A stretch of 64,000 bases of DNA from an uncultured Chloroflexia bacterium (GCA_963813335.1 CAWEYL010000001.1:224001-288000), one strand, 5' to 3'. Counted from the first letter of the stretch, positions 44,690 to 47,591 are shown. Notes: generated by a model not told the origin, from the sequence alone. Numbers and translations are program-made.

Positions 44690-44718
44690 TTGACAGGATG
44701 GATTTAGTGCTAAATACT
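44690..44718 (+). promoter_or_regulatory. Promoter with palindromic operator upstream of the fasciclin-heliorhodopsin cassette
   Basis: TTGACA (44690-44695), 17 nt, AATACT; AT-rich inverted repeat ATTTAG-TG-CTAAAT (44702-44715) in the spacer and -10. Confidence 0.7.
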
Positions 44719-44795
44719 CGGCACATCGGGTCCCAGCACGGACCCAGCGGCATGCAGAGGGCAGGCCGCACATCTTGGAAAGGACACCGATCGAC

Positions 44796-45793
44796 ATGAA
44801 GCGTCAGCTCCTCCTCGCGGCCGTGCCGCTCGCCCTCCTCGTGGCGGCGTGCAGCAGCACGGCTTCATCGACACCCGCTCCGGCGACGCCGGCGCCGGCC
44901 ACCTCCGCTCCGGCGGAGAGCATGGCGCCGGCCGGCGACATCGTGGCGACCGCCAAGGCTGCCGGCTCGTTCGGCACCCTGCTCAAGGCCGCCACCGCCG
45001 CCGGGTTGGTCGAGACGCTGCAGGGCCCGGGCCCATTCACCGTCTTCGCCCCGACCGACGCCGCCTTCGCCGCCCTGCCCGCCGGCACGCTCGACACCCT
45101 GCTGGCCGACCCGGCCGCCCTGAAGCAGGTCCTCCTGTACCACGTGGTCTCGGGCAAGGTGACCTCCGACCAGGTCGTGAGCCTGACCTCCGCGGACTCG
45201 GTCGAGGGCGCGCCCATCGCGATCGCGGTGAAAGGACGGCAAGGTCTACTTGAATGGCTCGACGCAGGTCGTCACCCCCGACGTCCAGGCCGCGAACGGC
45301 GTCATCCACGTCATCGACCAGGTGCTGCTGCCACCGGCAGCCCAGGCCAGCCCCGTCCCGTCGGCGACCACGGCACCGGCCGGCGACATCGTCGCCACCG
45401 CCAAGGCCGCCGGCTCGTTCGGCACCCTCCTCAAGGCCGCCACCGCTGCCGGATTGGTCGAGACGCTGCAGGGCCCCGGCCCGTTCACGGTCTTCGCCCC
45501 GACTGACGACGCGTTCGCGGCGCTGCCGGCCGGCACGCTCGACAAGCTCCTCGCCGACCCTGCGGCCCTCAAGCAGGTCCTGCTGTACCACGTCGTGTCC
45601 GGCGCGGTCACGGCGGACCAGGTCGTCGGGCTGACGTCGGCGACCTCCGTCGAAGGGGCGCCCATCGCGATCACGCGTCAAGGACGGCAAGGTGTACCTC
45701 AACGACGCCGCCGAGGTCGTGACCACGGATATCGCGGCCACCAACGGCGTCATCCACGTCATCGACCACGTCATCCTGCCGCCGTCAAACTGA
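44796..45793 (+). CDS. Lipoprotein with two tandem fasciclin (FAS1) domains (frame breaks near 45231 and 45676)
   Basis: Lipobox [28 protein letters not shown] each present twice; GGAAAGGA RBS. Confidence 0.9.
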
Positions 45794-45816
45794 CGGTCGG
45801 TCCTCCTCCTCCCTAC

Positions 45817-45859
45817 GGGGGACGGTGCCGGACCTCCGGCACCGTCCTCCGTTCTCTCT
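45817..45859 (+). terminator. Strong hairpin between the fasciclin and heliorhodopsin genes
   Basis: GGGGGACGGTGCCGG-ACCT-CCGGCACCGTCCTCC followed by a weak pyrimidine tract. Confidence 0.55.
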
Positions 45860-45877
45860 GTCTGATTGAGGGATCCC

Positions 45878-46672
45878 ATGCACGCGACCCAGGCCATGAA
45901 CCCGAACGCCGGCGCCGTCTCGACGCCAACCTCCTTCGCTCGCCCGCTTCGACGCTGGAACATCGCGCTCGGCGCGCTGCATGCCCTCCAGGCGATCGCG
46001 ATCCTCGCGCTGGCGACCGCCTTCACGCTACCGGTGACCGGAAGCTTCCTGGCCGGTCCCCCAGGCACGCCGCCCGCCGCGCCCGCGACGCTGTTCGAGC
46101 TCCCGATCGCATCGGGGGTCGCGCTCTTCCTCCTGCTGTCCGCGGGGTTCCACGCGCTCGTCTCGCTGCCGCGCGTCTCCGACCGGTACCTGGCCGGCCT
46201 TGTGAGCGAACACAACTTCTACCGGTGGGCGGAGTACTCGCTGTCCTCGTCCGTGATGGTCGTGCTCATCGCGATGCTGACGGGCATCAGCGACGTCGCG
46301 GCACTGATCGCCATCTTCGCGGCGAACGCGGCCATGATCTTCTTCGGCGCCGTCCAGGAGCGCTACGAGTCGCCGGGCGGCTCGCTCTGGCCGTTCTGGC
46401 TGGGCTGCGTGATCGGTATCGCGCCGTGGCTGGCGATCGGGGTGTACCTATGGTCGCCGGGCAGCAGCGCGGAGCCGCCCGCGTTCGTCTATGCGATCTT
46501 CGGTTCGCTCTTCGTCTTCTTCAACGTGTTCGCGCTCAACATGTGGCTGCAATACCGGCGAGTCGGACGCTGGCGTTCGTATCTCTTCGGAGAGAAGGCC
46601 TACATGGTCCTGAGCCTGGTGGCGAAGTCGCTCCTCGCCTGGCAGGTGTTCGCCGGCACGCTCGCCGGATGA
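45878..46672 (+). CDS. heR: Heliorhodopsin
   Basis: Seven TM helices; N...G.LH..Q in TM1, FH in TM2, [12 protein letters not shown] in TM3 (counterion Glu), [11 protein letters not shown] in TM7 (retinal Lys). Confidence 0.95.
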
Positions 46673-46718
46673 TGGGCGTCTGCCGGCCGTGGCAGGATGC
46701 CCGGATGGGACGCACCCG

Positions 46719-47591
46719 GTGAGCGACGACGGCTCGGGCCTGCTGACGCTGCATGAGGCAGCCGATCGGCTCGGCGTCCACTACATGACGGTCTACCGGC
46801 GCGTTCGACTCGGCATGCTGCCGGCTCGGAAGGTCGGCGGTACGTGGCGCATCGACCCGGTCGACCTGACCGAGCCGCGGTCAGGCTCCGTCGACTCGAA
46901 GGCTCGTGGGACGGGACCGTCGCAGCCGCTCCGTGACGGCAAGCCGCGACGCGCTCCGTGGCCCGGGCGACTCCGCGAGCGGATGCTCGCCGGTGACGCC
47001 GCCGGGAGCTGGCAGGTCGTCGAGGCAGCCATGGCGTCGGGTGTCGAGCCTGCTGACGTCTACGTCGAGATCCTGACACCCGCCCTCCACGCGATCGGCG
47101 CGGGTTGGGAGGCAGGAAGGATCCCGATCGAACGCGAGCACCTCGCGAGCGGCGTGGCTACCGCGATCGTCGGCCGGCTCGGGCCGCGCTTCCGCCGACG
47201 CGGTCGCCACCTCGGGAGCGTGATCGTCGCGATGCCGGCCGGTGAGCGCCACGGCCTCGGCGTCGCGATGCTGGCGGACATCGTGGCGCAGGCCGGCTAC
47301 GACGTCCTCAATATCGGGGCGGATACCCCGCCCGCGTCGCTGGCGTCCGCCATCAGGTCCCGCGATGACCTCCGGGCGGTGGTGATCAGCGTGGTGGACG
47401 CAACCAACCTGCCGGCTGCGGCGCGACTCATCGCGGCAGCGCGGAGCGCCGACGGGAGCGTCGTGATCGTCGCGGGCGGGTTCGCCGTCCCGGATCTCGA
47501 GAGCGCGACGCGGATCGGCGCGGACGAGTGGGCAGTGGACCCGCGACGGCTTCCCGCGCTGATCGCCGAGCACGCCCGCCTGCGGGCCTGA
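46719..47591 (+). CDS. Cobalamin-binding transcriptional regulator (excisionase/MerR-like HTH + CarH/LitR-type B12 domain)
   Basis: [22 protein letters not shown]-x9-EH ([12 protein letters not shown]); ExHxxG (GERHGLG). Confidence 0.9.

Follow-up and report, generated by a model that had tools for sequence, protein, structure and literature searches.

What brings a heliorhodopsin, a B12-binding regulator and a fasciclin lipoprotein together at one locus? The question is posed by a 64,000-nucleotide stretch of DNA from an uncultured Chloroflexia bacterium (GCA_963813335.1 CAWEYL010000001.1:224001-288000), referred to here as the window. In it, a heliorhodopsin gene is placed between a gene for a lipoprotein with fasciclin (FAS1) domains and a gene for a regulator resembling the B12 photoreceptor CarH. 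Most heliorhodopsin functions, and the source of retinal in hosts without blh, are described as open questions (bioRxiv 10.1101/2021.02.16.431466). An earlier note on this DNA interpreted the three genes as a two-chromophore sensing unit. In our analysis, the heliorhodopsin looks instead like the light-induced cargo of a B12 switch, not like a second input to one sensor. Judging from the sequence and its relatives, the three genes are likely to form a self-contained, negatively autoregulated, light-inducible operon that is repressed in the dark by the adenosylcobalamin (AdoCbl)-bound CarH-like protein.

Three co-oriented genes behind a single promoter

The locus (44690-47591) contains three co-oriented genes on the + strand (44796-47591), which are preceded by a low-G+C island; the 64-kb window has a G+C content of about 71%. 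The host, a soil bacterium, has a genome of 2.54 Mb in 7 contigs, which is rated 81% complete. A sigma-70-like promoter, TTGACA-17-AATACT (44690-44718), matches at 10 of 12 positions and is the sole promoter-like site within 44300-47800; 0.1 such sites are expected in shuffled sequence. The gene calls and this single site agree with the earlier description of three co-oriented genes behind one promoter.

The product of the first gene is composed of a signal peptide with a lipobox (...LLVAAC), a Pro/Ala/Thr/Ser linker, a FAS1 domain, a second linker, and a second FAS1 domain. Fasciclin family PF02469 matches with E-values of 5e-25 to 9e-35, and the pieces of both domains cover profile positions 2-90, 2-88 and 91-123 of 123. 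Lipobox equivalents (...A[AC]C[ST/G]), read by eye, are present in 19 of 20 relatives; the exception, L080, begins inside the gene. The identification of a fasciclin lipoprotein by the earlier note thus stands as to family and lipoprotein type, but the tandem pair of domains was overlooked, and the gene as assembled has no single open frame.

The second gene encodes a heliorhodopsin that matches PF18761 over profile positions 1-242 of 242 (E 7e-97, 323.9 bits against a cut-off of 26.7) and the NCBIfam HeR model NF038020 with 309 bits against a cut-off of 100. In an alignment to heliorhodopsin 48C12 (6su3, E 2.8e-80), chain positions 23, 80, 107 and 241 are matched by His, His, Glu and Lys, respectively. 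These columns are invariant across 14 cassette heliorhodopsins. We take position 241 to be the retinal Schiff-base Lys of transmembrane helix 7 (TM7), 107 the counterion Glu of TM3, and 23 and 80 the His residues of TM1 and TM2; on these assignments, the alignment bears out the claim that the retinal Lys, the counterion Glu and both His residues are kept. The stop codon of the heliorhodopsin gene is followed, after a gap of 16 nt, by the regulator gene.

The FAS1 and heliorhodopsin genes are separated by a hairpin that folds with -46.6 kcal/mol (z -4.3), a stability reached by none of 200 shuffled sequences. Strong hairpins of differing sequence occupy the equivalent place in 25 of 25 relatives, including five loci without heliorhodopsin. 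The gap in front of the heliorhodopsin gene is too short for a promoter, and heliorhodopsin and regulator would therefore have to come from transcripts that pass the hairpin. We infer that the FAS1 protein is the major product of the operon.

A conserved palindrome as candidate operator

A 14-bp palindrome, ATTTAGTGCTAAAT, starts 6 nt past the -35 hexamer. It is a candidate operator in the classical position of a repressor site, overlapping the -10 hexamer. To follow it across species, we scanned one genome per species for relatives of the regulator and kept the best 80 of 271. Among these 80, the regulator is at least 53% identical at 42 loci and 40-51% identical at the other 38. In 35 of the 36 assessable loci from two phyla, a single copy of the palindrome immediately precedes the first cassette gene (the exception is L057); some loci read ATTTAGTACTAAAT instead of ATTTAGTGCTAAAT. 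In the 2.54-Mb host genome, it is the sole site with at most two mismatches, where 0.055 are expected. Across 29 aligned Chloroflexota promoters, conservation of at least 80% is limited to TTGACA-N6-ATTTAGTGCTAAATAcT, and seven Acidimicrobiia promoters retain TTGAC-N-ATTTAGTACTAAAA. At the 80% level, the cassette promoters contain no second operator or half-site. No further copy with at most two mismatches, as a wider regulon would have, is present in the host genome (81% complete). The regulator gene is the last of the operon and the operator candidate lies at its promoter; the unit should therefore be negatively autoregulated.

The same palindrome accompanies more distant regulators. Acidimicrobiia regulators that are 40-51% identical carry it, frequently in duplicate with a spacing of about 30 bp. 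The genes behind these palindromes encode an extracytoplasmic function (ECF) sigma factor together with a heliorhodopsin; the anti-sigma factor RskA, an acyltransferase, and a short-chain dehydrogenase/reductase (SDR) or photolyase; or an amine oxidase, a DUF1365 protein, a cyclopropane-fatty-acid (CFA) synthase and a photolyase. They are typical light and singlet-oxygen response genes, and the loci seem to represent a broader B12 light regulon under a repressor of the HTH_17 type.

A CarH-like regulator with an excisionase-type head

The regulator is divided into a helix-turn-helix (HTH) domain (HTH_17, residues 18-60), a B12-binding_2 domain (94-164) and a Rossmann B12-binding domain (177-277; PF02310, E 1.5e-14). 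It contains the motifs W140-x9-E150-H151 and G185-E-R-H188-G-L-G. All 33 aligned relatives share W140, E150, H151, G185 and H188, and at least 90% of them have E186, in keeping with the reported presence of both CarH adenosylcobalamin motifs (W-x9-EH and ExHxxG). The W-x9-EH motif caps the upper axial ligand of AdoCbl and marks AdoCbl photoreceptors; the His of the (E/D)xHxxG motif is the lower axial ligand. The DNA-binding head matches Pfam HTH_17 (E 6.9e-9) and the NCBIfam excisionase model TIGR01764 (38.9 bits against a cut-off of 28.8) and not MerR_1, as expected from its earlier description as an excisionase-type HTH.

Residues 16-279 of the regulator align in phmmer to residues 24-282 of Thermus thermophilus CarH (TtCarH), DNA-binding domain included. 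Among solved structures, the best sequence matches are B12 photoreceptor domains and CarH/LitR. The best Foldseek matches of an AlphaFold2 model (pLDDT 88.5) are all B12 photoreceptors, namely the photocobilins 8j2w, 8j2x and 8j2y and the B12 domain of a Chloracidobacterium MerR-family protein (8jbs, 8jbt). Full-length TtCarH (5c8f, 5c8d and 5c8e, over 293-298 columns), AerR and LitR likewise belong to these best matches. A supply of AdoCbl is suggested by a PduO-type adenosyltransferase (E 2e-60) and other B12 enzymes encoded in the host genome.

We propose that in the dark the regulator, with adenosylcobalamin bound and as an oligomer, would occupy ATTTAGTGCTAAAT in the spacer and -10 region and block RNA polymerase. 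Light would cleave the Co-C bond, the repressor would leave, and transcription would begin. The first and probably most abundant product would be the membrane-tethered surface lipoprotein with two FAS1 domains. Transcripts passing the conserved hairpin would also yield heliorhodopsin, for which retinal should come from outside, and new repressor, which would reset the switch in the dark. The idea that B12 photolysis lifts repression and induces a sensor together with a FAS1 protein was already put forward in the earlier note. Comparison now lends it support through the promoter, the conserved and unique palindrome, and the light-related neighbors; the light response itself we infer.

Several observations weigh against a CarH-type light switch at this locus. 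The regulator fails the NCBI CarH equivalog NF052513, scoring 66.7 bits where 400 are required and matching over residues 95-289 only, and both Pfam and NCBIfam type its HTH as excisionase, not MerR. The residue following W140 is variable among relatives; TtCarH reportedly uses His132, at this position, for its light-state adduct. The Chloroflexota promoters carry one palindrome each, the TtCarH tetramer is said to bind three direct repeats, and the oligomerization of the regulator on DNA may thus differ from that of TtCarH. The hairpin behind the FAS1 gene could stop most transcripts, which would leave only weak induction of heliorhodopsin and regulator. Furthermore, light induction is no general trait of heliorhodopsins, as the transcript of the one from Aurantimicrobium photophilum is reported to rise in the dark (PMC8591293).

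Table 1 Features of the cassette and related palindrome loci
Feature	Position	Strand	Remarks
-35 hexamer TTGACA	44690..44695	+	at least 80% conserved in 29 aligned Chloroflexota promoters
Palindromic operator candidate, 14 bp, ATTTAGTGCTAAAT	44702..44715	none	between -35 and -10, overlaps -10
-10 hexamer AATACT	44713..44718	+	spacer 17 nt; promoter scan
Lipoprotein with two tandem FAS1 domains	44796..45793	+	Pfam PF02469, relatives, Logan contigs
GC-rich hairpin, 17-bp stem	45815..45852	+	immediately after FAS1 stop; partial terminator or RNA stabilizer
Heliorhodopsin	45878..46672	+	ATG at 45878 behind GAGGGA; listed TTG start at 45866 is an alternative
CarH/LitR-like regulator	46689..47591	+	HTH_17, four-helix bundle with W-x9-EH, Rossmann B12 domain with GERHGLG
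Acidimicrobiia palindrome loci	L110 4480-6184, L111 6830-8538, L115 6980-10473, L120 2830-6703, L119, L121, L124

Spread and variation of the cassette

The order FAS1-heliorhodopsin-regulator is found in 25 of the 42 loci with close regulators. Five loci have FAS1 and regulator without heliorhodopsin (L053, L059, L060, L061 and L082), and another five have a heliorhodopsin remnant of 49-140 residues between the two (L070, L071, L076, L079 and L081). Heliorhodopsin and regulator occur without an intact FAS1 gene at two loci (L069 and L072); the remaining loci are cut by a contig end (three) or contain the regulator alone (two). Heliorhodopsin is thus missing or decayed in 10 of the 37 assessable loci, and by this comparison FAS1 and regulator form the stable core of the cassette. 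That several species have such remnants flanked by an intact FAS1 gene and an intact regulator gene points to repeated, independent loss of the rhodopsin. Heliorhodopsin remnants are also present in L043. Seven of the 42 loci carry Acidimicrobiia labels, and six of these have the two-domain FAS1 gene; L069 has a remnant only. Among the 38 loci with distant regulators, FAS1 is found at none and heliorhodopsin at two.

The cassette follows one lineage of heliorhodopsins. In a tree of 74 heliorhodopsins, 25 of 25 cassette tips form one clade with a support of 1.0, in which the Acidimicrobiia subclade is well supported (0.989) and the Chloroflexota subclade weakly (0.29). Of 60 relatives, 36 belong to the genus, 15 of them with heliorhodopsin, and 24 to a sister genus, 22 of them with heliorhodopsin. 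Across 18 fetched regions, orthologous heliorhodopsins (67-79% identical) keep the cassette order and distant ones (40-46%) do not.

An even draw of the phylum yielded heliorhodopsin in 54 of 401 Chloroflexota genomes (58 match rows), from which 40 loci were fetched. The 18 dropped rows were the genome studied here, the near-duplicate genera G343, G166, G091 and G246, two rows each of G023 and G026, four g2 genomes whose loci had been fetched before, and five rows with partial matches (G082, G131 and G265). A FAS1 gene lies within 5 kb at two of the 40 loci (L141 and L150), both with regulator and palindrome, and a distant B12-HTH regulator lies within 5 kb at four others. Near the remaining heliorhodopsins, no FAS1 match was better than E 2 with filters off, with a profile built from 14 close sequences that could miss distant FAS1 domains. 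The two loci hold the cassette; it therefore belongs to one heliorhodopsin clade and not to heliorhodopsins generally, which speaks against FAS1 as a general heliorhodopsin neighbor. The survey thus does not bear out the refuting condition set by the earlier note, a trio not conserved elsewhere: the trio is conserved in Limnocylindrales (Chloroflexota) and Acidimicrobiia, within a single heliorhodopsin clade.

One Acidimicrobiia cassette (L066, 2518-4516) has two additional genes between heliorhodopsin and regulator; one encodes an NmrA-like NAD(P)-binding protein with DUF2867, the other an SRPBCC (Polyketide_cyc2) lipid-binding protein. The NmrA/DUF2867 build is also present beside a regulator relative in L120.

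Pigment supply and the role of the FAS1 protein

Neither phytoene synthase nor RPE65 has a family match in the window or in the host genome (81% complete). BCD/blh has none either, in a search that was uninformative, as the profile matched no control genome. The window is thus without recognizable retinal or carotenoid synthesis genes, as the earlier note had it, and the same holds genome-wide. From its gene content, the host seems incapable of carotenoid synthesis. With no phytoene synthase among the matches, retinal is probably taken up from outside, which has already been suggested for many heliorhodopsin hosts (bioRxiv 10.1101/2021.02.16.431466).

The phytoene synthase family is rare in the genus (2 of 36 genomes, both matches weak). 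In the sister genus, where heliorhodopsin stands without a neighboring FAS1 gene, 23 of 24 genomes have it. It occurs in none of five Acidimicrobiia cassette genomes; in five other Acidimicrobiia used as a control, four have an SQS_PSY match, three of them weak. The absence of carotenoid genes as a mark of cassette genomes is suggestive, and it is confounded by phylogeny.

FAS1 domains are usually adhesion modules. It is also possible, although unlikely in our judgement, that the FAS1 protein serves the heliorhodopsin directly, by docking to it or by capturing retinal, an apocarotenoid or a carotenoid on the outside of the membrane and handing it over. The B12 switch would in this case turn on a module for both chromophore supply and sensing. 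The arrangement of the genes is compatible with such a service: FAS1 is directly upstream of heliorhodopsin, behind a shared promoter, in 25 of the 37 assessable loci, and its lipobox puts it on the same membrane. The distribution of phytoene synthase, not found in the host, rare in the genus and absent from the five Acidimicrobiia cassette genomes as opposed to nearly all those of the sister genus, also fits, subject to the phylogenetic confounding and the weak matches in three of the four positive controls. The lipid-binding SRPBCC protein of one Acidimicrobiia cassette points in the same direction. There is a precedent in the FAS1 protein AstaP, which binds carotenoids in a hydrophobic tunnel kept by many FAS1 domains; the only bacterial AstaP homolog assayed, a cyanobacterial one, bound no carotenoids (PMC10147662).

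AstaP (8c18) matches the cassette FAS1 protein with E 1.2e-14. Adhesion-type proteins match better, with TGFBIp at 1.7e-68 (for the FAS1 protein of L090) and Rhodobacter Fdp (1w7d) at 1.5e-37; MPT70 (1NYO) and CupS (2MXA) match at 3e-18 and 1e-26. In sequence, TGFBIp and Rhodobacter Fdp are thus nearer to the FAS1 protein than AstaP is. The idea of FAS1 and heliorhodopsin as a pair, contained in the earlier note, does not hold as an obligate association: ten loci keep FAS1 and regulator with the heliorhodopsin lost or decayed, two have heliorhodopsin and regulator without FAS1, and the other Chloroflexota heliorhodopsins have FAS1 within 5 kb at only 2 of 40 loci. Each of the two is found without the other, and we therefore rate a direct role of FAS1 for heliorhodopsin low. 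If it were nevertheless true, the protein would be the first bacterial ligand-binding FAS1 protein and would provide a retinal route for heliorhodopsin hosts lacking blh.

Frame breaks in the FAS1 gene

As assembled, the FAS1 gene passes through three frames owing to two single extra bases, at 45231-45234 (site 1) and at 45675-45676 (site 2). Both +1 breaks are at equivalent places of two 448-nt repeat units. We consider it highly probable that the extra bases are assembly errors, and improbable that the gene is truly broken in this strain, either as a young pseudogene or as a gene requiring two programmed +1 frameshifts. A real break would explain why both repeats have their extra base at corresponding places, as two random errors at matching positions inside 1 kb are improbable; mis-polishing between tandem copies that are 83% identical would explain the matching positions as well. 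At site 1, GTG AAA G would let Lys-tRNA slip from AAA to AAG, but site 2 has no slippery codon.

The orthologs speak for an intact gene. The extra base, present in both FAS1 copies of the window, is missing from eight of eight aligned orthologous FAS1 domains, and the nearest relatives, L090 (FAS1 91-93% and heliorhodopsin 95% identical) and L050, have the same two-domain gene in a single open frame. The two copies of the window are identical at 339 of 408 nt and 118 of 136 amino acids. Third codon positions hold 48 of the 69 nucleotide differences, which form 39 synonymous and 18 non-synonymous codon changes, and the bias is seen both before and after the frame shifts. The excess of synonymous, third-position changes argues that the two-domain gene has been under purifying selection.

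Logan contigs of four runs from four studies (X1, X2, X3 and X10) were aligned to the stretch; they are mostly 90-99% alike and come from close relatives, not certainly from the same strain. Each run covering either site has contigs that omit exactly one base. At site 1, the base is omitted in all depth of X1, X2 and X10, and X3 has no cover; at site 2, X2 and X10 omit it in all depth, X3 omits it in 5.57 of 14.5, and X1 has no cover.

Four other genes of the window are split across two overlapping frames (54 frames scanned): coaX (4022-4976), trpE (23341-24976), pfk (48950-50465) and fpg (61836-62775), which encode type III pantothenate kinase, anthranilate synthase I, phosphofructokinase and Fpg glycosylase. 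Such splits are a signature of long-read indels and, together with a completeness of 81% in 7 contigs, fit a long-read assembly with residual indels. Indel errors may explain why the genome is rated only 81% complete despite its few contigs. On the combined grounds of orthologs, codon pattern, Logan contigs and split genes, we judge programmed +1 frameshifting or a dead FAS1 gene to be unlikely.

Unlikely alternatives: a possible photoreceptor pair and a non-photic regulator

It is very unlikely, in our estimate, that heliorhodopsin and B12 regulator are a signaling pair of two photoreceptors in which the light-activated heliorhodopsin binds the cytoplasmic regulator and tunes repression. Contact between a heliorhodopsin and the product of a neighboring gene has been reported for glutamine synthetase (PMC9529153) and for the OmrDE ABC transporter, and the "MerR family transcriptional regulator" is listed among ten frequent operon neighbors of heliorhodopsins (PMC11109279). 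The two genes are just 16 nt apart at our locus, and the four distant B12-HTH regulators near other Chloroflexota heliorhodopsins would also fit such a pairing. Nevertheless, at ten loci the regulator is still found with its candidate operator and FAS1 although the heliorhodopsin is lost or decayed, and no heliorhodopsin is present at 36 of the 38 loci of its distant relatives. Cobalamin-binding proteins are neighbors of proton-pump rhodopsins too (bioRxiv 10.1101/2021.02.16.431466), which fits co-regulation better than contact.

It is likewise very unlikely that the regulator of the proposed B12 light switch senses cobalamin supply or redox state instead of light: B12-binding domains of this fold do act non-photically in corrinoid proteins and methionine synthase, which are also among its matches, but the W-x9-EH cap motif that marks photoreceptors is invariant in all 33 relatives, photoreceptors head both its sequence and its fold matches, the more distant relatives that share the candidate operator adjoin photolyase and singlet-oxygen-stress-type genes, and the cargo here is itself a photoreceptor.

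Upstream region and other features of the window

The 5' untranslated region of the cassette contains an inverted repeat, GGGTCC-N6-GGACCC (44729-44746), which is retained in the two closest relatives. Its fold is weak (z -2.2), with 8 of 200 shuffled sequences equally good. All four Logan runs have a G inserted behind 44733/44734 in this region. A scan with Rfam found no RNA family within the cassette.

The 1.7 kb from a tRNA-Arg gene to the cassette promoter hold short overlapping + strand frames only. One short frame of 43250-44400 has a weak PD40/WD40 repeat match (E 4e-5) and may belong to a decayed or frame-broken beta-propeller gene. As this weak match is all that the region 43000-44690 contains, we regard it as unrelated to the cassette.

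Elsewhere in the window, a stop-free frame of 966 amino acids (26693-29590, + strand) covers indole-3-glycerol phosphate synthase, phosphoribosylanthranilate isomerase and a tryptophan synthase beta-type PALP domain, and one of 586 amino acids (33760-35517, - strand) covers shikimate kinase and dehydroquinate synthase. They may be gene fusions or open frames that cross gene borders in high-GC DNA. A protein with GGDEF and HD-GYP-type (HD_5) domains is encoded at 19987-21882, and class I lysyl-tRNA synthetase at 16930-18597.

Significance and comparison with known systems

The cassette is a compact, conserved and tractable unit with a defined promoter, a 14-bp operator candidate, a CarH-like repressor with a different DNA-binding head, and two cargo genes. 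It predicts that its clade of heliorhodopsins is made only in light, along with a surface FAS1 protein. The natural variants, with FAS1 only, heliorhodopsin only, or both, suggest clean comparisons, and the repressor-operator pair could serve as a small green-light switch in high-GC bacteria.

The regulator shares its three-part build with CarH and class I LitR (T. thermophilus CarH, 5C8A, 5C8D, 5C8E and 5C8F; LitR, 3WHP): an N-terminal DNA-binding domain, possibly of the winged-helix type, a four-helix bundle with W-x9-EH and an ExHxxG Rossmann domain, with sequence and fold matches over the full length. As in these systems, the candidate operator lies across a promoter whose operon responds to light, here by prediction. 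The head, however, matches excisionase/HTH_17 models and not MerR_1, and the regulator reaches 66.7 bits against the 400-bit CarH cut-off. A single 14-bp palindrome replaces the tandem direct repeats that CarH is said to bind. Whereas CarH controls carotenoid genes, the regulon here consists of a FAS1 lipoprotein and a heliorhodopsin, in genomes in which no phytoene synthase was found.

Light-inducible regulons are reportedly controlled by LitR-LitS of Streptomyces and by the class II LitR PmlR2 of Pseudomonas mendocina. The Acidimicrobiia relatives of our regulator, which precede genes for ECF sigma and anti-sigma factors, photolyase, CFA synthase, DUF1365 protein and SDR, resemble these regulons in their reported gene content. 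Unlike in LitR-LitS, no sigma factor intervenes at our locus, and the repressor is proposed to act directly on the promoter of the structural genes.

Heliorhodopsins are co-transcribed with partner genes in other operons (glutamine synthetase, photolyase and OmrDE ABC transporter), as is predicted here. Their link with cobalamin-binding or MerR-type neighbors has already been published in the form of family counts: MerR-family regulators are among the ten frequent operon neighbors given by Cho et al. 2024 (PMC11109279), and Chazan et al. 2021 (bioRxiv 10.1101/2021.02.16.431466) report cobalamin-binding proteins next to both heliorhodopsins and proton pumps. The main texts of these two studies, in the parts available, describe neither the operator nor the FAS1 gene nor autoregulation. 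We found no paper that joins heliorhodopsin with fasciclin or describes the operon or its operator, in a search that covered literature other than supplementary neighbor tables, which possibly list PF02469.

The FAS1 protein has the fold and the secreted or surface location of bacterial FAS1 proteins (Fdp, 1W7D; MPT70, 1NYO; CupS, 2MXA) and of algal AstaP (8C18), which is induced by photo-oxidative stress (PMC7477208, PMC8234090). What sets it apart from all of them is that it is a lipoprotein, has one or two FAS1 domains, and is proposed to be controlled by a B12 light switch. What the comparison of sequences suggests to be new at this locus is the CarH-like B12 switch with an excisionase-type head, its palindromic operator, and its unusual regulon.

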